From: Gammaproteobacteria bacterium
GTDB taxonomy: Bacteria > Pseudomonadota > Gammaproteobacteria > GCA-001735895
Direction of reading: 5' to 3'
Length of the DNA stretch: 28,726 nt
Assembly (NCBI GenBank): GCA_050298595.1
Contig: JBNKUM010000038.1
Span: 1 to 28,726 of the forward strand
Every line of letters begins with the position of its first letter. Positions within the stretch are counted from its first letter, which is position 1. Position numbers and translations under genes: made by a program. Below are positions 1-17,021 of the stretch, piece after piece. The notes under the pieces are model-generated. The model worked only from the letters and a program-made list of their open reading frames with translations, was not told the DNA's origin and made no database searches.

Positions 1-782
1 TAAAGAGTAAAAACCTGATTTGCAGTTAAGGCATTGATAGTCTCACTGCCTGAAGTTGCTTTTGATCCTGACCAGTCACCCGCAGCGCTACAACTACTGG
101 CATTCGTACTGCTCCAGGTTAATATTGTGTCGCCATTATACGCTACACTCAAAGGACTTGCTGTCAGGCTTAAGGTTGGGGTTGTATCTGCTACCACAGT
201 GACGCTAACCGAATCATTTACGACTCCTCCCGGACCTGAGCAGGAAAGATTAAAGGTATTGTTATTGACTATGGAGTTGATCACTTCTGAACCTGAAGCA
301 GCTTTGCTGCCTGACCAGTCTCCTGAAGCTGTACACTCAGTAGCATTGGTGGAGGACCAGCTCAGCGTGGTTGAAGAATTCATATTAACCGCGCTTGACG
401 AAGCTGAAAATGTCAGGGTTGGTACGACTACGTCTCCAACATAAACAATAACTGTATCGCTGACTGCCGTAGCTTCGCTCATACAGCTCAGAGTAAATGT
501 GCTGTCCTCACTCAGCTGATCGATCACCTCAGAACCAGTGACCGACTTATTCCCTGACCAATCCCCAATAGCCACACAATTAGAGGCATTATCGACCATC
601 CAGGTTAATGTAACACTCCCGTTATTACTGATATTGGTTAGATTACTTTCAAGTGTGACTCTTGCACTTACGTCGTCACTACCATCCCTTGTTGTAATCG
701 TCATTTCACCATCGCATCCCGTTAGAAACCACGAAAGCATGATTGAAAAAAGGATAAATTTAAAATTAGAATATCGCATCAT
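1..782 (-). CDS. Surface lipoprotein with tandem 81-aa Cys/Trp beta-sandwich (Ig-like) repeats; runs off window start
   Basis: Hand translation from ATG 782: MMRYSNFKFILFSIMLSWFLTG-C-DGEM (signal peptide II, lipobox LTGC). Repeats TWMVDNASNCVAIGDWSGNK, SWSSTNATECTASGDWSGSK, TWSSTNASSCSAAGDWSGSK; no stop seen before position 1. Confidence 0.88.
   Translation of the reverse strand, partial: MMRYSNFKFILFSIMLSWFLTGCDGEMTITTRDGSDDVSARVTLESNLTNISNNGSVTLTWMVDNASNCVAIGDWSGNKSVTGSEVIDQLSEDSTFTLSCMSEATAVSDTVIVYVGDVVVPTLTFSASSSAVNMNSSTTLSWSSTNATECTASGDWSGSKAASGSEVINSIVNNNTFNLSCSGPGGVVNDSVSVTVVADTTPTLSLTASPLSVAYNGDTILTWSSTNASSCSAAGDWSGSKATSGSETINALTANQVFTL
68..563 (-). repeat. Intragenic tandem repeat, 243-bp period
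   Basis: ctgacca(g/a)tc (the DWS codons on the minus strand) at 68, 311 and 554, exactly 243 bp apart. Confidence 0.9.
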
Positions 783-1741: not shown

Positions 1742-3595
1742 ATGACTGATAGCAAAAAAATAATTCTTGGCCTTTCCGCTTTTTACCATGACAGTGCCGC
1801 CGCTCTGGTGGTTGACGGTGAAATAATCGCCGCTGCGCAAGAAGAGCGTTATACCCGAAAAAAACATGACCCCGGCTTTCCTGAAAATGCTATTCGCTAT
1901 TGCTTGCAAGAAGCAGGAATTACGCTTGGAGATGTAACTCAGGTTGTTTTTTACGATAAACCTCTGGTGAAATTTGAGCGCTTGCTAGAAACCTATATTC
2001 ACTACGCGCCCAGAGGTTTCCATTCGTTTTTGGCGGCTATGCCCGTGTGGCTTAAGGAAAAACTTTTTTTAAAAGCAACCTTAAAAAAATCCCTTGCCGC
2101 CATGAATGGTATTAAAGAGCACGATTTACCGCAGCTTTTATTTAACGACCATCATCGTTCTCACGCCGCATCCGCGTTCTATCCAAGCCCCTACGAAAAG
2201 GCTGCAGTGATGTGTCTGGATGGCGTAGGCGAATGGGCTACCAGCACGGTATGGTTGGGTGAAGGGCACAGTTTAACGCCTCAGTGGGAAATCGATTTTC
2301 CTCACTCCTTAGGGTTACTGTATTCCGCTTTTACTTATTACACAGGATTTAAAGTGAATGCGGGTGAATACAAGTTAATGGGTTTAGCGCCTTACGGTGA
2401 GCCCACTTATGTCGATTTAATTTTTGATAATATTATCGATGTTAAAGAAGATGGCACCTTCAAGCTGGACATGAGTTACTTTAATTATGCTACCGGCCTA
2501 ACCATGGTGAATAAAAAATTCTGCGATCTATTCGGAGGACCTGCTAGAAAACCTGAATCGGAATTACGGCAAAAAGAAATGGACATTGCGCGTTCTATTC
2601 AAGTGGTCACCGAAGAAATAATTCTTAAATTGGCTGCCACAGTAAAGCTCGAGACCGGCTGCGATAATTTATGTCTGGCTGGTGGCGTCGCCTTAAATTG
2701 TGTAGCAAATGGGCGCTTGCTTCGCGAAGGCGCTTTTAAAAATATCTGGATTCAACCTGCAGCGGGAGATGCAGGTGGTGCTTTGGGTGCAGCACTTAGT
2801 GTCTGGTACGAATATTTAGGTAACGAACGCAAAGTGAATCTGAAGGATTCCATGCAGGGCAGTTATTTAGGCAATAAATTTAGCAACGACGAAGTGCAAA
2901 CCGCATTAGATAAATGTGGTGCAAAATATCAACGGCTTGACGACGCACAGTTAATGCCAGAACTGGCCACAATTTTAGCAGATGAAAAAATTATTGGCTG
3001 GTGCCAGGGCCGAATGGAGTTTGGGCCGCGTTCCTTAGGTGGGCGCTCAATTTTGGGCGATCCACGTAGCCCAAAAACACAATCGACGATGAATTTAAAA
3101 ATTAAATACCGAGAATCTTTTCGACCGTTCGCACCCGCCGTAAAGGCTGAAAAAGTGAATGAGTGGTTCGAGATTAATGAGCGCAGCCCTTATATGCTGT
3201 TGGTGGCACCGGTAAAACAGGAAAAATGTTTTGCCATAACCGAAGAACAGGAAAAACTGTTTGGTATCGAAAAATTGAATATACCACGCTCCGAAATCCC
3301 TGCTGTTACTCATGTAGATCATTCTGCGCGTGTACAAACGATTCACAGTGAGACCAATCCACGTTTTTATCATTTGATCGATCAGTTTGAACAAATAACT
3401 AACTGTCCTGTATTGGTAAATACATCGTTTAACGTGCGTGGCGAACCCATTGTGTGTACGCCGAAAGATGCTTACCGCTGTTTTATGCGCACTGAAATGG
3501 ACTGTTTAGTCGTAGAAAATTTTCTGATGTATAAACAGGAGCAACCCAAATGGGAAGAGCAAGGGGATTGGCGCAATGAATTTGAACTGGATTAA
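1742..3595 (+). CDS. O-carbamoyltransferase, NodU/CmcH/TobZ family (SxtI-like)
   Basis: ILGLSAFYHDSAA, AQEERYTRKKHD, HHRSHAASAF, DGVGE, GEYKLMGLAPYG, AGGVALNCVANG, GRMEFGPRSLGGRS and LVNTSFN; 617 aa. Confidence 0.95.
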   Translation: MTDSKKIILGLSAFYHDSAAALVVDGEIIAAAQEERYTRKKHDPGFPENAIRYCLQEAGITLGDVTQVVFYDKPLVKFERLLETYIHYAPRGFHSFLAAMPVWLKEKLFLKATLKKSLAAMNGIKEHDLPQLLFNDHHRSHAASAFYPSPYEKAAVMCLDGVGEWATSTVWLGEGHSLTPQWEIDFPHSLGLLYSAFTYYTGFKVNAGEYKLMGLAPYGEPTYVDLIFDNIIDVKEDGTFKLDMSYFNYATGLTMVNKKFCDLFGGPARKPESELRQKEMDIARSIQVVTEEIILKLAATVKLETGCDNLCLAGGVALNCVANGRLLREGAFKNIWIQPAAGDAGGALGAALSVWYEYLGNERKVNLKDSMQGSYLGNKFSNDEVQTALDKCGAKYQRLDDAQLMPELATILADEKIIGWCQGRMEFGPRSLGGRSILGDPRSPKTQSTMNLKIKYRESFRPFAPAVKAEKVNEWFEINERSPYMLLVAPVKQEKCFAITEEQEKLFGIEKLNIPRSEIPAVTHVDHSARVQTIHSETNPRFYHLIDQFEQITNCPVLVNTSFNVRGEPIVCTPKDAYRCFMRTEMDCLVVENFLMYKQEQPKWEEQGDWRNEFELD

Positions 3596-3607
3596 TTGGG
3601 AAAGTAT

Positions 3608-4015
3608 ATGAATATGCAAACGAACAATAACCCCACACTAAAGCAATTGCGTGAATTTGGATTTGTAACTGGCGCGATATTGGTTGGCTTGTTTGGTTTA
3701 CTTTTACCCTGGATTTTTGATCACGCTATACCTCGTTGGCCCTGGATAATCGCAGCGTTACTGATAATTTGGGCGCTTGTTCATACTAGAAGTTTAATTT
3801 ATGTTTATCGACCATGGCTGAAGTTTGGCGCGATTATGGGCTTGATTAACTCCCGCATTATTTTAGGGATCATTTTTTTTCTTATCGTAACACCGGTCGG
3901 TTGGGTTATACGGTTGTTTGGTAAACGCTTGCTGGAAAAGACAGTAGACGATAGCCAGAGTTACCGCGTTACCAGTACAAAGCCGGACAATAAACATATG
4001 GAGAATCCATACTGA
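3608..4015 (+). CDS. SxtJ-family membrane protein
   Basis: LREFG motif, hydrophobic helices, W-x-K-F-G-x3-G-x-INSRIILGIIFFLIVTPVG, C-terminal MENPY; directly after the carbamoyltransferase. ATG 3608 preferred to TTG 3596. Confidence 0.85.
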   Translation: MNMQTNNNPTLKQLREFGFVTGAILVGLFGLLLPWIFDHAIPRWPWIIAALLIIWALVHTRSLIYVYRPWLKFGAIMGLINSRIILGIIFFLIVTPVGWVIRLFGKRLLEKTVDDSQSYRVTSTKPDNKHMENPY

Positions 4016-4167
4016 TGTTTGATTTACTGGCTGATTTGTGGGGCTTTATGAAAGCCCGTAAGAAATTCTGGTTAGGCCCTATTATTGCGGTATTACTGCT
4101 GTTGGGTGTTTTAATTGTTTTTGCTCAGGGATCGGCTGTTGCCCCCTTTATTTATACTCTTTTCTAG
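4015..4167 (+). CDS. DUF5989/SxtK-family 50-aa membrane peptide (not in ORF track)
   Basis: TGATG overlap with the SxtJ stop; MFDLLADLWGFMKARKKFWLGPIIAVLLLLGVLIVFAQGSAVAPFIYTLF* has the RKKFWL and APFIYTLF signatures. Confidence 0.92.
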   Translation: MFDLLADLWGFMKARKKFWLGPIIAVLLLLGVLIVFAQGSAVAPFIYTLF

Positions 4168-4205
4168 CTGGCGTACTTCTGAGTTTCGCTTTGATTCAGC
4201 AAAAT

Positions 4206-4243
4206 AAAAAAAGCGAGATCCCATAAAGGCGCTCGCTTTTTTT
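4206..4243. terminator. Bidirectional intrinsic terminator
   Basis: A7-GCGAG, 14-nt loop, CTCGC-T7 between convergent genes. Confidence 0.75.
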
Positions 4244-4268
4244 GTCGTCCAGATAAGATGCGCCTGTG

Positions 4269-5330
4269 TTATGTATTATCCGTCCAAAGGGTTTGAATTT
4301 TTTCAGCAATAGCTTCACCTGCGCAACGGTTGCCAAGAGAGTTGGGGTGATAGCGATCGTAGCTTATGGTGTTGCCTTTTGGCGCTTTCTTTTTACATTC
4401 TCGGAAAGTTTCTAATAAATCCAAATGGTGAAAACCATGCTTTTCAGAAATTGCCTCGATTTTTTTGTGCTCTTCAGCAAAAGCGTATTCGCCCTCTAAG
4501 CCCTGATCATTTTTATCAAAATCAGGGAACACTGTAAGTAATACTTCAAAGTTGTGAGTTTTGCCTAGCTGGGCCAGCTCTGCAAACGAGTCTTCAACTG
4601 TGTCGGAGTAAAATTGTTTAATGACGTCCCCACTTTTTTCAGCTGCAACGGTATCTTCCGTAAACAATGGTGGTAGTACTTTGTAGGTAATCATACGCAG
4701 GAAATCACTCTGCTTAACAATGGGATTTACTCGTGCGCGACTTAACACGCTATTGCCCGAAACTTTGCGTTCTTCTGCAAGCAGTAACCCGAGAATATTA
4801 CCATCGTCCTGTGACCGGTCGTTTAAGCAATAGGCCACTACTACCAGGTCTGGCTTGTATTGCAGCCCTCGTACTTTTAGCGTTTCCACCTCCTGGCGAG
4901 TATTGTAACCCGACACACCAAAATTCATAACATCAGTTTTGTGGCCCATTTTATTCAGGCTATTTTCCATTATTGTGGTGAAAATATTTTTGTCTTCGTT
5001 AATCCACAGGCCTGCTGTTATGCTATCGCCGATAACGGCTACGCGTTTGCTGCCGGGTTCTTTTATAAGCCTGTGATCATAGTCGCGGTAGCCCATATTA
5101 TTACTCGCACCGCGGTAGCCGTAATACCGTACAGACAGGTTTTCACCTTTGAGGTTGGGTATAGGCTCATAACCGATTACAGGGTTGTCTGACTGGCGCA
5201 CTCGCCATTTTTCGACGTAAACAACCTCTGGGGCCAGACCCAACATCCGCACGACAATCTCGCAGATGCCAAAAGCAAAAACAAGACTAATAACGACGAG
5301 CAGGGAATTCCCTATAATTTTCTTATACAT
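4269..5330 (-). CDS. Membrane-anchored SGNH/GDSL hydrolase or acyltransferase
   Basis: N-terminal TM ending EIVVR, GYRD, VIGDSITAG (block I), NFGVSGYNT (II), CLND (III), DRYHPN (V). Confidence 0.9.
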   Translation of the reverse strand: MYKKIIGNSLLVVISLVFAFGICEIVVRMLGLAPEVVYVEKWRVRQSDNPVIGYEPIPNLKGENLSVRYYGYRGASNNMGYRDYDHRLIKEPGSKRVAVIGDSITAGLWINEDKNIFTTIMENSLNKMGHKTDVMNFGVSGYNTRQEVETLKVRGLQYKPDLVVVAYCLNDRSQDDGNILGLLLAEERKVSGNSVLSRARVNPIVKQSDFLRMITYKVLPPLFTEDTVAAEKSGDVIKQFYSDTVEDSFAELAQLGKTHNFEVLLTVFPDFDKNDQGLEGEYAFAEEHKKIEAISEKHGFHHLDLLETFRECKKKAPKGNTISYDRYHPNSLGNRCAGEAIAEKIQTLWTDNT

Positions 5331-5793: not shown

Positions 5794-5834
5794 AACCTGA
5801 TAGAGTCCCTTATTTATACAAATTTCATTTGAAT

Positions 5835-6497
5835 ATGGATACTCACAATTGGCCTGACCCTTCTGAAGATAAGCGGCGACTGAGTAACGCTTTTACCGTT
5901 GCGCTGTTATTTACGCTACTGCTATGGGTATTAAAATTTACAGAATATTTTACAGCTATCGATTTTATCCGGCTCGGTATCTACCCGCGCCGTGCGACCG
6001 GTCTAATCGGAATAATCTGTGCGCCCTTAATACATAGCTCCTTCGCACATCTGTTCGCCAATACAGCACCTATCATTTTGATTGGGACCATGCTTCTTTA
6101 CGGTTATCCACGCGCTGCCAGAGTATTGTTGCCAGTTGTTTATCTAGGCAACGGTATTAGCGTGTGGCTGTTTGCCCGTGAGTCATATCATATTGGGGCT
6201 AGCGGACTCGCTTTCGGTATGCTGTTTTTTGTTTTTACGGTTGGTATTCTTCGCTGGGACCGGCGAGCCATAGCGCTATCACTGGTAGTATTTTTTCTTT
6301 ATGGAGGGATGATCTTGGGGGTTTTACCCATCCAGCAGGACATATCCTTCGAGTCACATTTGAGTGGTGCTCTGATAGGTATAATGCTTGCCTTCCGTCT
6401 CAGGCAGCATGACCCAGCAGCACCGCGTAAGCAGTACAGCTGGGAACAGGAGGATGAAGAAGCTGATGATAACGAGGACCGGCCAGACCGATTATAG
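5835..6497 (+). CDS. Rhomboid family intramembrane serine protease
   Basis: PLIHSSFAHLFAN, HIGASG (catalytic Ser), ISFESHLSGA (catalytic His), about 6 TM. Confidence 0.93.
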   Translation: MDTHNWPDPSEDKRRLSNAFTVALLFTLLLWVLKFTEYFTAIDFIRLGIYPRRATGLIGIICAPLIHSSFAHLFANTAPIILIGTMLLYGYPRAARVLLPVVYLGNGISVWLFARESYHIGASGLAFGMLFFVFTVGILRWDRRAIALSLVVFFLYGGMILGVLPIQQDISFESHLSGALIGIMLAFRLRQHDPAAPRKQYSWEQEDEEADDNEDRPDRL

Positions 6498-7698: not shown

Positions 7699-8373
7699 TT
7701 ACAACGGAGGATCTACCCTGTCTGATACTGAATTATTCACTCTGAACCATCCTGCGATAGAATAGCGATCGCGTGTAGCTGGGACTACCTCATGCGGAAA
7801 CTCTTCACTCAGAAAAACCACTATACTGCCCATCATTGGCAGTACCCTTATTCCCTCTTTGTCACTATCATCCAGGTACATCACCAGCTCACCACCATCA
7901 GTGTTAAGCCAGCCGGGGTTCAGGTAAACAACGATGGTTAGCACACGATTCGACTCCCCCCTGAAAGCATCGTAATGCCTTTTATAAAAATCGCCAGGCG
8001 CATAGTGGGCAAAATGGCTTTCGAAAGAGAACAGGCCCAAAAACAGGCGCCGATTCAGAAACTTTTTTAATTTGTCCGTCCACCCCAGCCACTGCCTTCC
8101 CGCTGACGATTCTCCAGTGATCCAGCAGATGACGTCGGTTCTGACAAACTCGTTGGTTAGATAGGCATCACCTCTCCCAATTCCCGCCCTGGCGTATTTT
8201 TCAGCATCCATAGTCTGCTGATGATTATACAGTGAATCAGCAAGCTCCAACGGTAAAGCGAGCGGACAGATACTGTAACCCTGTGCTTGAAGATCCAATG
8301 CAATACGCGTAAAAAGTGTTTCATCTACAGTATTATCATCGCCTAAACCTGCCAGAGATTTTGCTTCTATCAA
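7699..8373 (-). CDS. 2OG-Fe(II) oxygenase, SM-20/EGL-9 prolyl-hydroxylase-like
   Basis: VRTDVICW, YKRHYDAF (HxD), YLNPGW...GGEL, FPHEVVPATRDRYSIAGWF; TTG start with AGGAG RBS. Confidence 0.9.
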   Translation of the reverse strand: MIEAKSLAGLGDDNTVDETLFTRIALDLQAQGYSICPLALPLELADSLYNHQQTMDAEKYARAGIGRGDAYLTNEFVRTDVICWITGESSAGRQWLGWTDKLKKFLNRRLFLGLFSFESHFAHYAPGDFYKRHYDAFRGESNRVLTIVVYLNPGWLNTDGGELVMYLDDSDKEGIRVLPMMGSIVVFLSEEFPHEVVPATRDRYSIAGWFRVNNSVSDRVDPPL

Positions 8374-8913: not shown

Positions 8914-10185
8914 ATGGAAAAGAGTGAAAAGTCGATCCGCCAGACCCTGTTGCTGGAGAAAAGCGGTAAACAGCATCCGCGCTGGCAGATGTGGGGTGGT
9001 GCTGTTGCGACACTGCTGATTTTGTTCTTGCTCTTCAATCTGTTTTTTTCCAATAGCAATGGAGCTGTTACCTACAAAACCGCCGAGGCGAAGCGTGGCG
9101 ATCTGACGCTTAACGTAACTGCCACAGGGACGCTACAACCGGTTAGTCAGGTGGACGTGGGTAGTGAACTCTCCGGTACCATTTCCAGCATTAAAGTCGA
9201 TTTCAATGATACGGTAGAGAAGGATCAGATACTGGCACAGCTTGATACCACCTCGCTTGAAAGCCGTATCTCCGAGGGCAGGGCATCGCTGCAACAGGCA
9301 GATGCCAAGGTGCAGGACGCGCTCGCCACCGAGCAGGAGATGAAGGTCAAGTTAAAGCGCTGCAAAGAGCTGGCAAAGAGCAAGATGTGTTCCGCCAACG
9401 ATGTCGATATTGCGGCGGCGGCCCTCTCCCGCGCTGTTGCCGCTGTGGCCAGCGCCAGGGCCCAGGTCGCACTGGCCAGGGCCACCCTGGAAGGCTATGA
9501 GACCAATCTGCAAAAGGCGACGATCCGTTCGCCGATTAAAGGTATCGTGCTGGATCGCAAGGTAGAGCCGGGACAGACCGTGGCCGCTTCCTTACAGACA
9601 CCGGTGTTGTTCACTCTGGCGGAAGACCTGACCAGGATGGAATTGCTGGTCGCCATTGATGAGGCTGACATCGGTCGTATCCAGGATGGGATGAAAGCAC
9701 AGTTCAGCGTAGATGCCTATCAGGATAAACGCTTCGAAGCCACCATCACACAGATACGTCACGCGCCGCAGACGGTGGACGGCGTTGTGACCTACGAAAC
9801 AGTACTGGCCGTAGATAACCCGGAGCAGCAACTGCTTCCCGGCATGACTGCTACAGCCGATATCCGCACCCGTCATCTGCAGGACGTACTGTTGGTCCCC
9901 AATGCAGTGTTCCGCTATAGCCCGCCGACGGCTGCCAGCAAGGTAGAGAGTAGCGGTGGCAGTATTTTCAGCCGTTTGTTCCGTCGACCACGGATGTCGC
10001 GTAGTAGCGGCAAGAAGGTCGAGGAAAACAGCCATGAGCGCAAGGTCTGGCTGTTGCGTGACGGTAAGCCGGAAGCGCTAACGATCACCATTGGTGCCAG
10101 TGATGGTATCCACACCGAGATCACTGGCGGAGCGCTGGAAGTCGGTATGGCGTTGATCACCGACAGTACGGCAGATAGAAAATGA
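8914..10185 (+). CDS. MacA-like periplasmic adaptor (membrane fusion protein)
   Basis: N-terminal TM, ATGTLQP..VDVGSELSG, coiled hairpin, IRSPIKGIV, GQTVAASLQTPVLF, LLPGMTA. Confidence 0.93.
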   Translation: MEKSEKSIRQTLLLEKSGKQHPRWQMWGGAVATLLILFLLFNLFFSNSNGAVTYKTAEAKRGDLTLNVTATGTLQPVSQVDVGSELSGTISSIKVDFNDTVEKDQILAQLDTTSLESRISEGRASLQQADAKVQDALATEQEMKVKLKRCKELAKSKMCSANDVDIAAAALSRAVAAVASARAQVALARATLEGYETNLQKATIRSPIKGIVLDRKVEPGQTVAASLQTPVLFTLAEDLTRMELLVAIDEADIGRIQDGMKAQFSVDAYQDKRFEATITQIRHAPQTVDGVVTYETVLAVDNPEQQLLPGMTATADIRTRHLQDVLLVPNAVFRYSPPTAASKVESSGGSIFSRLFRRPRMSRSSGKKVEENSHERKVWLLRDGKPEALTITIGASDGIHTEITGGALEVGMALITDSTADRK

Positions 10186-10883
10186 GTGCATCACTGATCG
10201 AGCTTACGGGCGTTACCAAGATCTACGGCAAAGGGCAGGCAGCGATGCGAGCCCTTGATGGCATCGACCTGAGCATTCAACAGGGCGAGTTCGTCGCGGT
10301 CATGGGACCCAGTGGATCGGGCAAATCGACCTGTATGAATATTCTGGGATGTCTCGATACCCCCACCGATGGGCAGTTCCACTTTCAGGGAGTCGAGGTG
10401 GGCGGCTTGAGTAATGATCAACGCGCCCTGCTGCGGCGCAATTATCTCGGTTTTGTCTTTCAGGGATTTAACCTGCTCAACCGTACCTCAGCGCAGGAGA
10501 ATGTGGAGCTGCCTCTGATCTATCGCGGCATGCCGAGCGAGGAGCGTCACCGCCTCAGCAGAGAAGCACTGGATCAGGTCGGCCTCAAGGGCTGGGAAAA
10601 CCACACCCGTGGCGAGCTCTCCGGTGGACAGCAGCAGCGTGTAGCCATCGCCCGCGCCATTGTTACCCGCCCCGCCGTACTGCTGGCCGATGAACCCACC
10701 GGTAACCTCGATACTGAACGTAGCCACGAGATCATGGAGCTGCTTACCAGCTTCAATCGGGAACTCGGCATCACCATTGTGATGGTGACCCACGAGGCGG
10801 AGATTGCAGAGTATGCCGCGCGGGTGATCAGTTTCCGTGATGGCCGCATGTCCGATGATAAACAGCAGGGGAGGATACACTAA
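10182..10883 (+). CDS. ABC ATP-binding protein, MacB/LolD type
   Basis: GPSGSGKST, GFVFQGFNLL, LSGGQQQRVAIARA, LLADEPTGNLD, VTH; ATGA overlap. Confidence 0.96.
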   Translation: MSASLIELTGVTKIYGKGQAAMRALDGIDLSIQQGEFVAVMGPSGSGKSTCMNILGCLDTPTDGQFHFQGVEVGGLSNDQRALLRRNYLGFVFQGFNLLNRTSAQENVELPLIYRGMPSEERHRLSREALDQVGLKGWENHTRGELSGGQQQRVAIARAIVTRPAVLLADEPTGNLDTERSHEIMELLTSFNRELGITIVMVTHEAEIAEYAARVISFRDGRMSDDKQQGRIH

Positions 10884-12088
10884 TGCTGTGGAATGCCCTG
10901 TTACTGGCGCTACGCTCTATTCGGCGCAACGTGCTGCGTTCATTTCTGACAACTCTCGGTATCGTCATCGGGGTCGCCTCGGTGATCATCATGGTCAACC
11001 TCGGTAGTGGCGCGACGCTGCAGGTGAAACAGCAAATCGAAAGCCTCGGCAGCAACCTGCTGTTTCTCGGTGTCGGTCAACGTCTTGGTCACGGCCAGCG
11101 CACCAAAGGGTCACCCTTCGATCTGGCAGATGTGGAGGCTGTGGCGCGTGATGTGCCCGGTATCGCCGAGGTAGCTCCTAGCTCTTCGCAGGCGATGGTG
11201 GTGATATATGGTAACGAAAACTGGAGTACCAGCGTCAACGGTAGCGACAATCGTTATTTTACCGTCGGTAACTGGAGCCTGAAGTCGGGACGTTATTTCA
11301 ATACTAACGAGCTAGGTGGTGGTAAAGGCGTCTGTGTCATCGGCGAAACGGTGCGTGAGAAACTGTTCGGTGCACAGGACCCGATTGGTAGCAAAATCCG
11401 CCTGAAAAAAGTCTCCTGCGAGGTAATTGGTCTGCTGAAGAGCAAAGGTCAGTCGGCGGGTGGTTCAGATCAGGACGATACCATCATCCTGCCCCTGCGT
11501 TTTTTCTGGCGGCGTATTGCCGGTAATCAGGACGTCAATCGCATCCTCATCTCCGCACGCGACGGCGTCTCCACCACCAGGGTGGCAAAAGATATCACCA
11601 GTGTGATGCGTGAACGCCGTCGCATCGCCTCGGGTGAGGATGACGACTTTAGCGTGATGGATCTGCAGGAAATCACCAGCACCCTTACCAACACCACCAG
11701 GGTGCTCACTGCTCTGCTCGGTGCAGTGGCGGGAGTAAGTCTGCTGGTGGGTGGTATTGGTATCATGAATATCATGCTGGTGTCGGTTACTGAGCGTACC
11801 CGAGAGATTGGTATTCGTCTTGCGATCGGTGCGCTTGAAAAGGATGTGCTCACCCAGTTCCTGGTCGAGGCGGTGGTGCTCTCCTCCATCGGCGGGCTGT
11901 TCGGCATTATACTGGCATTGGCTGTCACCTGGTTTATCGCCAACGCTTTAGGGATGCCCTTTGTGGTGGAAGTGGGGATGACCTTCTTCGCCTTCCTCTT
12001 CTCTATGGTGATTGGTGTGGCGTTTGGTTACTTCCCTGCGCGTAAGGCGGCAAGGCTGGATCCGATCGATGCGTTAAGGCATGAATAA
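10883..12088 (+). CDS. MacB/FtsX-family ABC permease
   Basis: RSFLTTLGIVIGVASVI, large periplasmic domain, GGIGIMNIMLVSVTERTREIGIRLAIGA, PARKAARLDPIDALRHE. Confidence 0.96.
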   Translation: MLWNALLLALRSIRRNVLRSFLTTLGIVIGVASVIIMVNLGSGATLQVKQQIESLGSNLLFLGVGQRLGHGQRTKGSPFDLADVEAVARDVPGIAEVAPSSSQAMVVIYGNENWSTSVNGSDNRYFTVGNWSLKSGRYFNTNELGGGKGVCVIGETVREKLFGAQDPIGSKIRLKKVSCEVIGLLKSKGQSAGGSDQDDTIILPLRFFWRRIAGNQDVNRILISARDGVSTTRVAKDITSVMRERRRIASGEDDDFSVMDLQEITSTLTNTTRVLTALLGAVAGVSLLVGGIGIMNIMLVSVTERTREIGIRLAIGALEKDVLTQFLVEAVVLSSIGGLFGIILALAVTWFIANALGMPFVVEVGMTFFAFLFSMVIGVAFGYFPARKAARLDPIDALRHE

Positions 12089-12211
12089 AAAAGATTGAAC
12101 CGCCAAGTAACGCAAAGGAAATACAAGAAAACTGTCGTATGAAATGTTCAACTGCGGATCCCGGGATAATGGCAATAATAGTTTTCAGGTTCTAGTGCAG
12201 TGTCCATTAGT

Positions 12212-14311: not shown

Positions 14312-14830
14312 TTATTCCGGTCCCAGTTTATTTAATGCCTTGTCATACATGCCAGCTAATAATAAATCTCCGCTAGCGTTTACACGAAACTGTCCAAACC
14401 TTGCCTTTTCATAATATTCTGCATGTCCTTCCTGAAAGAAAAAGGCGTTAGTCGCAAATTTTACTGCTCCATTACGAACACGGTAACGCATCAGCATTTC
14501 ATCTTCAGATAAGACCTGATCTTGATAAATGCTTTTAAAGGTAGCAATGTGTTTATCATTCAGAGTAACTATTACATAGCCGTCGGACGTATCAGCGTTA
14601 TGCCGCCTTGAGTTATATTCCTGTGTTTTTGGAAGCGCGTCATTGACATCATTAGCCATTGCAAAACGCAGCGCCATATAATCACCCTGCATTAAAGAGC
14701 GCGGATCAACAGGTGCGAGATTTAGGTATACGACCTTGCCTTCTGCCAGATGTTTTTCCTTTGCGAATATCAACCAGTTCACTACAGCCAGTACCAGCAC
14801 CAGCGCTAGCAGAGCAATTATCTTACGCAT
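14312..14830 (-). CDS. GDYXXLXY domain protein
   Basis: N-terminal TM; LAPVDPRSLMQGDYMALRF; AFFFQEG. Confidence 0.93.
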   Translation of the reverse strand: MRKIIALLALVLVLAVVNWLIFAKEKHLAEGKVVYLNLAPVDPRSLMQGDYMALRFAMANDVNDALPKTQEYNSRRHNADTSDGYVIVTLNDKHIATFKSIYQDQVLSEDEMLMRYRVRNGAVKFATNAFFFQEGHAEYYEKARFGQFRVNASGDLLLAGMYDKALNKLGPE

Positions 14831-15896
14831 GCTCCGCCTCCTTTTTCCTGATTAAAATATTCAACATGAGCCAGCGCATGATGAGTAGTGTTATACCAAT
14901 CACAAACAAGGACTGTGATTTTTCTAGCAGGGTGACATTGAGAAAGTAATAGTAGGATGAGATAAAAAATAATAACGACACTATACCCATACCGATGAGT
15001 ATTCGGTTTGACCCCAGAAAACCTAGTAACAGAATCGCTATACCCACATTTAGTCCCAGCATTTCAAAGGAGGCGGCACATAATAGCAGGGTTGCCAGTA
15101 ATGCTGTTGCGGGAATTTTTTCAAGCATATCTGCATAGTATCTTTGCAGGATATTCCACACCAGATAAAGCATTACCACAGCGATCAGGACATTTCCGAG
15201 CCAGGGCGGAAGTAATAACTCTCCAGAGCGATACAAACTGAAAAAGTTATTGAATATAAATCCATACATAAGGCCTCCTTTGTACAATAGTAATGCCAGT
15301 ATCAGGCCATAACCAATTGCTCTGAAAGCACTCATTAATCTTACCCATCGAAATTCATTAACCCAGCACACAACTATCATCAGCAACACAGTCCCTGTAA
15401 TAAATTGAGGTAATCCCATCCTGGCCATAAATATTGAAAAAGAACAGGTTGCTGCAAAAGAGGTTAATACTCGATGGATAAAATTTGGGATCAGTAGGGT
15501 TAGTAGAATTTGTAACACAGCCACAAACATCCAGAACAATGCACTGTCATCATCAACCAATCCATAGATAGAAAAGATCAGCAGCGCCTGTCCCGCTAAA
15601 CTGGCTGTCAGAGCCAGATGTTCTACAAATTCATTTTTTGCGGAACGCAATGCAGCAAAAGAAATGCCGATGACGACAGTTCCAACGAATAAACCTGCTG
15701 AACTATTGTCAAAAACGTCACTTAAAACCAGGCCCAGAAAAACTAGCAAAAACAAGGAGGCTATCCAGCCTGAAAATGCCAGTAATACTTTTACATACCA
15801 GGGTGATTGTAGTTTTTCTATTGCTAATGGGAGGGCTCCCTGTACCAGATTGGACTCAAGCAATAACGCCCATAACTGTTGTGTTTGCAGCTTCAT
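14823..15896 (-). CDS. DUF4401 membrane protein
   Basis: SPWYVKVLLAFSGWIASLF, many TMs, SSYYYFLNVTLLEKS; overlaps the GDYXXLXY gene. Confidence 0.85.
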   Translation of the reverse strand: MKLQTQQLWALLLESNLVQGALPLAIEKLQSPWYVKVLLAFSGWIASLFLLVFLGLVLSDVFDNSSAGLFVGTVVIGISFAALRSAKNEFVEHLALTASLAGQALLIFSIYGLVDDDSALFWMFVAVLQILLTLLIPNFIHRVLTSFAATCSFSIFMARMGLPQFITGTVLLMIVVCWVNEFRWVRLMSAFRAIGYGLILALLLYKGGLMYGFIFNNFFSLYRSGELLLPPWLGNVLIAVVMLYLVWNILQRYYADMLEKIPATALLATLLLCAASFEMLGLNVGIAILLLGFLGSNRILIGMGIVSLLFFISSYYYFLNVTLLEKSQSLFVIGITLLIMRWLMLNILIRKKEAEHA

Positions 15897-16858
15897 GAAT
15901 GGAGCTCCTGATGCACGCTTTTCAGCCAGAATGCTGCACCAGCGCCCATACCTATGACTATTAGTGCTAACACAAAGAGTCCACCCAGATCAAAGTCATT
16001 TAGTAGTACCATGCCCATTGAGGGAATTGCTATCGTAATAGCTGACAGGCAAAGACCTGCGAGCATAAATAAATCGGGAAGTAGTTTTCGATAAACCAGA
16101 TACATGAATAGCATCCATCCCAGCCACATGCTAAACGGCATCTGCATGGGTTTCTCCTGAATAATGGCATTCAAAACCAGCCAGCTCAGAGAGCTTCCAC
16201 TACTTACAGCAATCAGGCGAATCGCCCAGCGTTCACTCAACCAGTCCCAACGCCTGGCTGATAATTCCCAGATCACCAGAACCAGAGTATTAAAGCCGAA
16301 CATCAGCCATAACAAATCAAGATCATTGCGTATAAACCAGAACGAACGCCCGAAGGTATTGAAATATAAAGCTATTGACGTGTTCATCAGCACTACCCAG
16401 ACTATCCAGATAGCGGCAAAGCGACTGATGATTGCCCAGGGAAGCATCAGCAGACCCCAGTAGAAGAAGAGCTGCCAGGGGTCAGCACCAGTCTGGTAAA
16501 CCTGCCCATACAATGCCAGCAATACACCCAACAATATTGTCGCGATTAGCAACAACACCTTGCCGCCGATTTTTTCTTCCCCCAGCAAACAATAAGCGCC
16601 AACAGCGAGAGCAATCAAGGCCTCTACCATGCCAAACTTTGCAAAATAACCCAATGCCGTCCAGTTAAATGCAATAAAAAACATAACCGCAAAAGCCAGT
16701 GTCAGTCCACCCAACCAGAGTAATAGCCGATCAAGAAAAAGTTGCCAGCTACTGACATCAGGTGTGACTTTAGTTGCAATTAGAGCGGTTGCGATTTTGT
16801 CCTGCGGGATATTCCCGTGCTCTATAAATTGAATGATTTGATTGCGTGTTGATATCAT
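15893..16858 (-). CDS. DUF2157 membrane protein
   Basis: FFIAFNW..LGYFAKF, LALYGQVYQTGADPWQLF..W; ATG 16858 preferred to the track start 16924. Confidence 0.88.
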   Translation of the reverse strand: MISTRNQIIQFIEHGNIPQDKIATALIATKVTPDVSSWQLFLDRLLLWLGGLTLAFAVMFFIAFNWTALGYFAKFGMVEALIALAVGAYCLLGEEKIGGKVLLLIATILLGVLLALYGQVYQTGADPWQLFFYWGLLMLPWAIISRFAAIWIVWVVLMNTSIALYFNTFGRSFWFIRNDLDLLWLMFGFNTLVLVIWELSARRWDWLSERWAIRLIAVSSGSSLSWLVLNAIIQEKPMQMPFSMWLGWMLFMYLVYRKLLPDLFMLAGLCLSAITIAIPSMGMVLLNDFDLGGLFVLALIVIGMGAGAAFWLKSVHQELHS

Positions 16859-17021
16859 AGTACGGTAGTTAACTCCTTCGTAATTATACTTTCCAATCTG
16901 GCCAGCGTTCGACGATGGCATCAAACTAACGAAGCTGCGCTATTGTATCTTAAGGCTGACTGGCTATACCATCTGCGAGCGTAATAGATTCTTTATTGTG
17001 TTGTGGCTACATTAATGCAGC

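Follow-up and report, generated by a model that had tools for sequence, protein, structure and literature searches.

A carbamoyltransferase-SxtJ-SxtK membrane module with a frequent SGNH partner, and its possible role as a tyrosine carbamoyl relay

The stretch of DNA analysed here, called the window, is one entire contig of 28,726 nucleotides (nt) (JBNKUM010000038.1, positions 1 to 28,726 of the forward strand) out of the 5.49-Mb assembly GCA_050298595.1 of a gammaproteobacterium (lineage GCA-001735895). It encodes an O-carbamoyltransferase (CT), an SxtJ-like small membrane protein (J), a DUF5989/SxtK-like micropeptide (K) and a membrane-anchored enzyme of the SGNH/GDSL fold (SGNH). We interpret this module as a membrane-associated carbamoylation system, consisting of a constant CT-J-K core and a frequent fourth member, SGNH. 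The mechanism that we rank first, although tentatively, is a tyrosine carbamoyl relay from K to SGNH. The cytoplasmic CT, dependent on ATP and carbamoyl phosphate, would make the carbamoyl group, and Tyr47 in the tail of K would be the working end that receives it as a tyrosine carbamate. The tail would then swing to the active site of SGNH and pass the carbamoyl group to Ser103, and Ser103 would hand it to a hydroxyl of an extracytoplasmic acceptor. SxtJ would be a scaffold linking K to CT, and the logic of the relay would be that of the DltX-DltD and PatA-PatB pairs, minus the membrane-bound O-acyltransferase (MBOAT).

The initial annotation had described a CT-SxtJ-SxtK operon facing an anchored SGNH gene, and the open reading frames (ORFs) and Pfam agree with it for all four genes. 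The CT gene (1742..3595, + strand; 617 aa; Pfam Carbam_trans_N, 8.5e-118, and Carbam_trans_C, 5.6e-75) ends in a stop codon that directly abuts the frame of J (3596..4015, + strand; Pfam SxtJ, PF19588, 3.7e-16). This frame opens with TTG at 3596 and has its first ATG at 3608, which is the likely start and gives a protein of 135 aa. The J stop and the K start share one base (TGATG), and K (4015..4167, + strand; Pfam DUF5989, PF19451, 3e-26) is, as first described, a 50-aa peptide with a basic RKK followed by one hydrophobic helix and then FIYTLF directly before the stop codon. The SGNH gene (4269..5330, - strand; 353 aa; Pfam Lipase_GDSL_2, 3.3e-14) is convergent with K, with 101 nt separating their stops, and Ser103 and D325/H328 are present in its product.

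When K was searched with phmmer against 1.84 billion representatives, 3014 cluster representatives matched at E ≤ 1e-3, the best 150 being 55-84% identical to K. The locus set comprised 541 confirmed loci in genome assemblies of many phyla, and the best 80 of the 541 were kept. Partners were counted using six-frame ORFs and profiles iterated on these K loci; ORFs in other frames of high-GC DNA had misled crude gene calls, which were dropped. It was found that the J profile matched in 72 of the 80 loci and that CT lay within 1 kb of K in 68, or in 52 of 58 when only loci with 3 kb or more on each side are counted. Whole genomes were searched for five of the K loci that had no nearby CT, and a CT was found elsewhere in each (5/5).

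CT aligned over residues 13-599 to the solved NovN (2.4e-89), with full-length matches that included GdmN and TobZ (2.4e-89 to 3e-79), and Pfam covered residues 8-352 (Kae1-like N domain) and 409-598 (YrdC-like C domain). CT therefore resembles TobZ, NovN and GdmN in full-length homology and in both Pfam domains, but these three have no J or K partner, whereas the J/K-linked CTs form a clade of their own. The score against the NodU equivalog was 147.5 bits, far under its cut-off of 1000, so CT is not NodU itself. The clade was seen in an even sample of the class (151 genomes, 31 with a CT, 30 CT loci fetched), in which J was present in 19 of the 30 loci; K was seen in 14 of these, was cut at the locus edge in 3 and was not seen in 2. 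Among the other 11, one (L191) had a divergent K without J and 10 lacked both. The 19 J-bearing CTs (the window CT and 18 others) grouped on a quick IQ-TREE tree as one clade with a Shimodaira-Hasegawa-like approximate likelihood-ratio (SH-aLRT) value of 96, which held 19 of the 20 J/K-linked CTs, the exception being L191 on a long branch outside. Two genomes in the sample and on the tree carry an unpublished flag, G068 (its CT, L186, linked) and G170 (its CT, L192, not linked); without them, the counts are 18 linked and 9 not linked.

The L191 locus (G179:C2) encodes a divergent CT and a K-like peptide that ends in APFVYTLF, has a different N-terminus and adjoins an SGNH gene; no J was detected there. 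A second CT is encoded in the window's genome (G000 contig C19, 38285-40105, - strand; locus L282), with no SxtJ or DUF5989. Its neighbours are an exosortase (EpsH), a FemAB-like GNAT protein, an ABC exporter and an LPG-synthase-like membrane protein; the locus looks like a polysaccharide or exosortase system, and this CT sits on a very long branch of the quick tree. The module itself is patchily distributed: of 41 related genomes, 6 had it, as did 1 of 13 other genomes from the same genus. K was found in only 2 viral contigs. Of 80 phage loci that encode a related CT (38-61% identity), 2 matched the bacterial SGNH profile and 1 the J profile. Crude pattern scans of the same 80 phage loci gave one clear soluble basic 40-aa ORF and otherwise noise. 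This very basic 40-residue ORF, on a viral contig (L280), overlaps the end of the phage CT gene and ends in KKRDPFVYKSF; its tail has the P-F-[IV]-Y-x-x-F form of K, and it has no membrane helix.

The tail of K reads F-[IV]-Y-x-x-F in all 80 loci, with F(-6), Y(-4) and F(-1) fixed. The last six residues were FIYTLF in 65 loci, FIYTIF in 6, FVYTLF in 4, FIYALF in 2, and FIYTMF, FIYAVF and FIYSIF in 1 each, and no tail ended in Trp. The pattern P-F-I-Y-x-x-F was also present in 144 of the best 150 cluster representatives, and the conserved tyrosine expected by the initial annotation for DUF5989 was thus recovered in both sets. Across phyla, this C-terminal tail and the N-terminal RKK-W stretch are among the best-conserved parts of K. 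The N-terminal 19 residues contain on average 4.5 Lys and Arg, and the last 12 residues are uncharged in 80/80 loci; by the positive-inside rule, such a basic N-terminus and uncharged tail place K with its N-terminus in the cytoplasm and its tail outside. The N-in/C-out topology predicted from these charges is the one that the original proposal requires. The conservation of the tail in every locus implies a function on the side of the membrane where it lies. Among the 30,319 complete ORFs (40 aa or longer) in the whole genome of the window, 4 have an F.Y..F end, and only in K was the motif preceded by a membrane-helix-like stretch. Because the invariant uncharged tail is predicted on the far side of the membrane and the only recognisable enzyme of the core is cytoplasmic, it is probable that something specific happens to the tail outside.

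Where K homologues continue beyond the tail pattern, the added residues resemble noise. High-GC loci also gave long 'K' ORFs (85-494 aa), and L161 gave one of 565 aa; these were rejected as other-frame artefacts rather than fusions, and the SxtJ domain was absent from 20 long K representatives. About 8 of 183 hits in a search for longer forms had SxtJ and DUF5989 in one ORF; four of them (P0337, P0350, P0352 and P0336) resemble in-frame read-through and the others resemble frameshifts. These few and uncertain ORFs suggest that the C-tail of J and the N-terminus of K may be located at the same face of the membrane.

The hexapeptide form is known from acyl-tyrosine shuttle systems. The invariant Tyr of the C-terminal FXYXXF of DltX, for which the initial annotation had named a FIYNEF-type tail, carries an acyl group to the membrane-anchored, SGNH-fold DltD (PMC12148441), and the DltX tail binds a pocket of DltD, with the membrane helices of both proteins in contact (PMC13653941). 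Like DltX, K is a microprotein of about 50 residues that spans the membrane once; its N-terminus is basic, and its helix is followed by a short uncharged linker and by an FXYXXF end predicted to lie outside. The module is like Dlt in having an ATP-dependent cytoplasmic enzyme that activates the group and a membrane-anchored SGNH-fold enzyme with an intact nucleophile. Unlike Dlt, where DltX is encoded alongside a DltB-type MBOAT and the DltA/DltC loading pair, it has no MBOAT in the locus, none was found in the genome, and there is no carrier protein; the proposed group is a carbamoyl rather than an amino-acyl ester, and the SGNH enzyme is not DltD-like by fold ranking. A comparison of the C-termini of DUF5989 and DltX had been suggested at the outset. 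K and two relatives matched DUF5989 alone in Pfam (E ≤ 10), not DltX, whose family we take to be PF12459, and matched nothing in NCBIfam, although HMMER filters drop most weak matches and a very distant kinship could escape such a search. Similarly, the K profile gave membrane-helix noise in the PDB sequences (best E 0.066, DsbB) and no DltX chain. With no match to DltX models or PDB chains, the likeness of K to DltX appears to lie in architecture and hexapeptide and not in detectable homology. A second precedent is PatA of Neisseria, whose C-terminal hexapeptide FIYANF is described in the same passages as forming an acetyl-Tyr and donating to a periplasmic, N-terminally anchored SGNH transferase (PMC12148441). 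The K tail has the same hexapeptide form as PatA/PatB and other MBOAT-SGNH O-acetylation pairs; in PatA, however, the motif is fused to an MBOAT and an invariant His loads it, whereas here it is on a free micropeptide and the only upstream enzyme is a soluble carbamoyltransferase.

In the SGNH enzyme, blocks I (GDS), II (G), III (N) and V (DxxH) are all present. Among 118 homologues, G101-D102-S103, G141 and H328 were invariant and N170, D171 and D325 were conserved in at least 90%; the catalytic residues are Ser103, Asp325 and His328. The model of the protein (predicted local distance difference test, pLDDT, 94.9; predicted template modelling score, pTM, 0.91) has an N-terminal helix at residues 2-30 and three short strands at 35-56, followed by the SGNH core; the extra beta-strand region covers approximately residues 35-92. 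An anchor in the inner membrane and an outward-facing catalytic domain are predicted for the enzyme. The anchor residues E24 and R28 are conserved. A Cys312/Cys336 pair is shared only within the close SGNH subfamily and is therefore no argument for a periplasmic location. With the SGNH protein as the query, no relative was found in 40 related genomes at E ≤ 1e-10.

Linkage of SGNH to K was quantified with a profile seeded with the window protein and iterated on the 80 K loci, which recovered 72 ORFs of at least 150 aa (in Pfam, Lipase_GDSL_2 for 48, ALGX for 10, DUF1574 for 3 and DltD for 1). Of the 80 loci, 21 had an SGNH-profile ORF within 150 nt of K, 30 had one within 1 kb and 40 had one within 2.5 kb, the ORF being on the strand of K in 31 and on the opposite strand in 9; in loci with full flanks, it was within 2.5 kb in 31 of 58. 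With the distance bins as internal control, the density of SGNH ORFs per 10 kb was 1.36 at 0-2.5 kb from K, 0.71 at 2.5-5 kb, 0.13 at 5-7.5 kb and 0.11 at 7.5-10 kb; that is, 51 ORFs in 375.6 kb within 2.5 kb of K compared to 3-4 per 280-299 kb at 5-10 kb, or about a 12-fold enrichment. The 51 linked ORFs carried an N-terminal hydrophobic anchor in 48, the Ser in 48 and the His in 48, in agreement with the membrane-anchored enzyme first envisaged. Their block I read GDS in 36, GGS in 11 and GSS in 1. The Asp varies. In the genome of the window, only 2 ORFs matched the K-linked SGNH profile, and the strong one (6e-73) is the enzyme 101 nt from K. In three of five other K-positive relatives, the top genome-wide match was 49 nt, 1.9 kb and 1.8 kb from K, and in the other two the assembly breaks at K; some of these genomes may have fed the profile, and this whole-genome placement is therefore not fully independent.

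These counts bear on the simplest explanation, that SGNH is an unrelated neighbour and the likeness of the K tail to the acyl-shuttle motif is a coincidence. It would fit the convergent orientation of SGNH, which is its own transcription unit with a hairpin between the genes, as well as the window having no polysaccharide genes and K having no match to DltX family models. The hairpin is an inverted repeat at ~4205..4243 (A-run/GC-stem/T-run, found by eye between the two convergent stops), which may be a two-way terminator; a consensus terminator scan did not list it, its loop exceeding the maximum of that scan. Coincidence would also fit a reverse search of 80 metagenome loci encoding SGNH relatives of 27-59% identity, in which K was present in 6 and, where at least 2 kb was available on each side, in only 5 of 32. 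However, it is at odds with the distance-binned enrichment at K, with the best genome-wide SGNH match adjoining K in four genomes, with the same convergent SGNH/K-J-CT layout in the two closest SGNH relatives (59 and 55% identity) and with the same I-J-K-L gene order in published sxt clusters. We consider coincidence to be very improbable. The SGNH loci without K held no recurring small Tyr-tailed ORF, the clusters seen being frame shadows of adjacent genes, nor any ORF that ends in an MBOAT-type tail. Their 93 neighbours were mixed, with no MBOAT or AT3 family among the top 25 families. SGNH is a frequent, not a constant, partner, and its family is wider than the K module; of the linkage between DUF5989 and SGNH that the initial annotation had supposed, the local association stood and the constant partnership did not.

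When the SGNH model was searched with Foldseek, the top solved structure was CgnD (E 3.8e-10), and not an enzyme of the DltD/PatB type, although the SGNH profile had no sequence match to CgnD at E ≤ 1. CgnD belongs to the crocagin pathway. There, the SGNH hydrolase CgnD slowly cuts CgnA, a basic precursor of 21 residues, to release its C-terminal Ile-Tyr-Trp core; the authors found its serine poorly placed and no measurable binding. The pathway also has a carbamoyltransferase, CgnI, with carbamoylation possibly before cleavage, and crocagin clusters are defined by the peptide-binding proteins CgnB/CgnE and the dioxygenase CgnC (PMC10070186). As in crocagin, a small basic peptide that bears a Tyr close to its C-terminus, a CgnD-like SGNH fold and a carbamoyltransferase occur together here. 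In contrast, CgnA is soluble and ends in Ile-Tyr-Trp, whereas K is membrane-bound and ends in Y-T-L-F; CgnD is soluble and the SGNH enzyme here is membrane-anchored, with no match between them at the sequence level. Because CgnD acts on a Tyr-bearing peptide end, this SGNH fold subtype can be taken to handle Tyr-bearing peptide tails. Together with the local enrichment at K and the intact nucleophiles, this makes SGNH the most likely partner of the K tail.

The CgnD result also raises the alternative of a maturation akin to that of RiPPs, peptides made by the ribosome and modified after translation, in which K would be a precursor, CT would carbamoylate Tyr47 or Thr48, and the CgnD-like SGNH would cut off the modified tail. 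The same combination in crocagin of a short basic precursor with a C-terminal Tyr core, CgnD and CgnI, with the possible order of carbamoylation and cleavage (PMC10070186), speaks for it, and T48 is invariant in a 13-sequence K alignment. But the end of K is Y-x-x-F and not Tyr-Trp, and a membrane helix as leader and the near-identity of all 50 residues across phyla would be unusual for a precursor. SGNH is absent near K in half of the loci and has no CgnD match by sequence profile, and no gene for CgnB, CgnE or a dioxygenase recurs in the lists of K-locus neighbours, in which CgnB and CgnE were not specifically sought. This alternative shares with the relay the problem of topology, with the enzyme inside and the tail outside, and we regard it as unlikely.

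The same four protein families in the same order are found in saxitoxin clusters as SxtI-SxtJ-SxtK-SxtL. In the published gene table, sxtI, sxtJ, sxtK and sxtL (GDSL) follow in that order (PMC2679770), and the four genes share one phylogenetic origin, also with copies in Lyngbya and Trichodesmium (PMC2684587). In the Lyngbya wollei cluster, sxtI is truncated and sxtL is also absent (PMC3037375). SxtL is annotated as a decarbamoylase (PMC2679770, PMC3037375), while SxtJ and SxtK are given as 'unknown' and 'hypothesised to work in conjunction' with SxtI (bioRxiv 10.64898/2026.06.11.731795). Among our loci, the Lyngbya and Trichodesmium copies have the K-SGNH arrangement in L052 and L067. In the cyanobacterial loci L052 (Trichodesmium erythraeum IMS101), L067-L071 and L079 (Lyngbya/Microcoleus), several SGNH paralogues stand in tandem after J-K: L052 has six, and the Microcoleus group has one of GDS type and two of GGS type (ALGX-like); the Trichodesmium CT is ~22 kb from the J-K-SGNH locus. 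Pfam and the ORF survey revealed no further sxt gene in the rest of the window, and the locus is therefore not a toxin cluster.

The AlphaFold2 model of J (pLDDT 88.9) has helices at residues 11-37, 44-58 and 61-103. The only near-invariant residues are W70 and P96, Lys/Arg clusters lie at the N-terminus, at residues 60-83 and in the C-tail, and no three-helix topology satisfies the positive-inside rule. The initial annotation had assigned to SxtJ the part of the MBOAT. This was not borne out: no conserved catalytic residue and no MBOAT-like fold were found, and no MBOAT was seen among the K-locus neighbours surveyed. J is more likely a scaffold tying K to CT than a catalyst.

Such a scaffold is also central to a further alternative, in which J and K are a tether or adaptor that holds CT at the inner face of the membrane for direct carbamoylation of a membrane-bound or exported substrate, and SGNH is a separate, later esterase or decarbamoylase. 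The solved CT relatives act without partners, J has no catalytic signature, and the conserved basic N-terminal stretch of K (LW.FM..RKK.W) fits a docking site at the cytoplasmic face. SGNH is optional at K loci and widespread without K, and its nearest PDB sequence relatives are ordinary esterases. The annotation of sxtL as a decarbamoylase (PMC2679770, PMC3037375) agrees with this as the conservative reading of the sxt literature. A tether, however, leaves unaccounted for the invariance, in 80/80 loci, of an uncharged tail that lies across the membrane and always ends the protein, and the 12-fold enrichment of SGNH right at K. It also leaves unaccounted for the L058 locus, where K is kept beside SGNH, no CT or J was found, and a CT is encoded elsewhere in the genome. 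We place the tether behind the relay, as a rather unlikely account of the whole module.

A number of points weigh against the relay. Its two ends are on opposite sides of the membrane, CT being cytoplasmic and the K tail being predicted outside. The homologue alignment of J has no conserved His, Ser, Cys or Asp in the membrane part, a fold search with the J model gave no meaningful match and no MBOAT-like fold, and an MBOAT (PF03062) was not found in the genome, which is 98.6% complete; no conduit is therefore evident. Carbamoyl-tyrosine has nowhere been observed, and carbamoyl-serine enzymes are usually long-lived, as with carbamate inhibitors of serine hydrolases, so that onward transfer from Ser103 is not a given. 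NovN, GdmN and TobZ carbamoylate their final substrates directly.

The SGNH enzyme contributes further points of this kind. CgnD, its nearest fold neighbour, is a hydrolase, and DltD, PatB, AlgX and OatA were not among the best 50 fold matches, although kinship is still possible. Half of the K loci (40/80) had no SGNH within 2.5 kb and are flanked by unrelated housekeeping genes, and 27 of the 32 well-flanked SGNH-relative loci had no K. Since the relatives of SGNH are mostly without K (at 27-43% identity), the conserved E24 and R28 are not specific to K. In the window itself, SGNH is convergent with K and thus transcribed separately. The relay therefore stays a proposal, with no evident conduit and a facultative SGNH. 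Relative to the interpretation first put forward, the tail, the topology, the local SGNH linkage and the sxt gene order are supported, whereas a DltD-like fold and SGNH as a constant partner are not.

A literature search, in which supplements were not covered, returned no paper joining 'acyl shuttle' with carbamoyl, none joining O-carbamoyltransferase, polysaccharide and periplasm, and none naming DUF5989; among the papers listed for carbamoyltransferase, SGNH and DltX, none had all three, and none linked carbamoyl transfer to a Tyr shuttle in its title or abstract. A wider proposal would be that the DUF5989/SxtK peptides, with more than 3000 cluster representatives across phyla, are MBOAT-free tyrosine carbamoyl shuttles that take the group from a cytoplasmic adenylate-forming transferase, act through a complex with SxtJ and deliver to outward-facing CgnD-like SGNH transferases, which decorate the envelope or exported molecules. 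SxtJ, SxtK and SxtL would then be reassigned and linked to CgnA/CgnD/CgnI as one ancient enzyme-peptide system. This is possible, but we regard it as doubtful.

The rest of the window has no polysaccharide cluster (Pfam and ORF survey) and holds a rhomboid, a pilin-like gene, a 2-oxoglutarate (2OG) oxygenase, a MacAB-like exporter, a GGDEF-EAL protein and other unrelated genes. The rhomboid-family protease gene (5829-6497, + strand) is next after the SGNH gene. The gene for the P4H-type 2OG-Fe(II) oxygenase (7699-8373, - strand) is 2.4 kb from the SGNH gene; crocagin-type pathways use a dioxygenase. The region 9000-12100 has a G+C content of 0.55-0.57 compared to ~0.42 around it, covers a three-gene HlyD / ABC ATPase / MacB-FtsX exporter operon and may be horizontally acquired. 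Three genes for DUF2157, DUF4401 and GDYXXLXY membrane proteins, none with a known function, are located at 14312-16924 (- strand), beside that of a GAF-GGDEF-EAL protein. At 3-782 (- strand), an open-ended ORF with no Pfam match encodes a lipoprotein-like N-terminus followed by at least 3 repeats of ~70 residues, each with a conserved Cys pair and 'GDWSG.K'.

SxtJ and SxtK have been 'unknown' companions of the carbamoyltransferase since the saxitoxin clusters were described, and were still so in a 2026 preprint (bioRxiv 10.64898/2026.06.11.731795). Even if the relay is wrong, this clade of carbamoyltransferases is an obligate three-protein membrane system, the outside tail of K must have some specific function, and the association with SGNH is real but facultative. 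If the tail Tyr does carry or receive a carbamoyl group, the acyl-tyrosine shuttle, so far known only from MBOAT systems, would extend to a different chemistry and a different loading enzyme. The part played by an SGNH subtype whose only studied member, CgnD, shows odd behaviour in vitro would be seen anew, and a very common gene trio of many bacterial phyla would gain a function.

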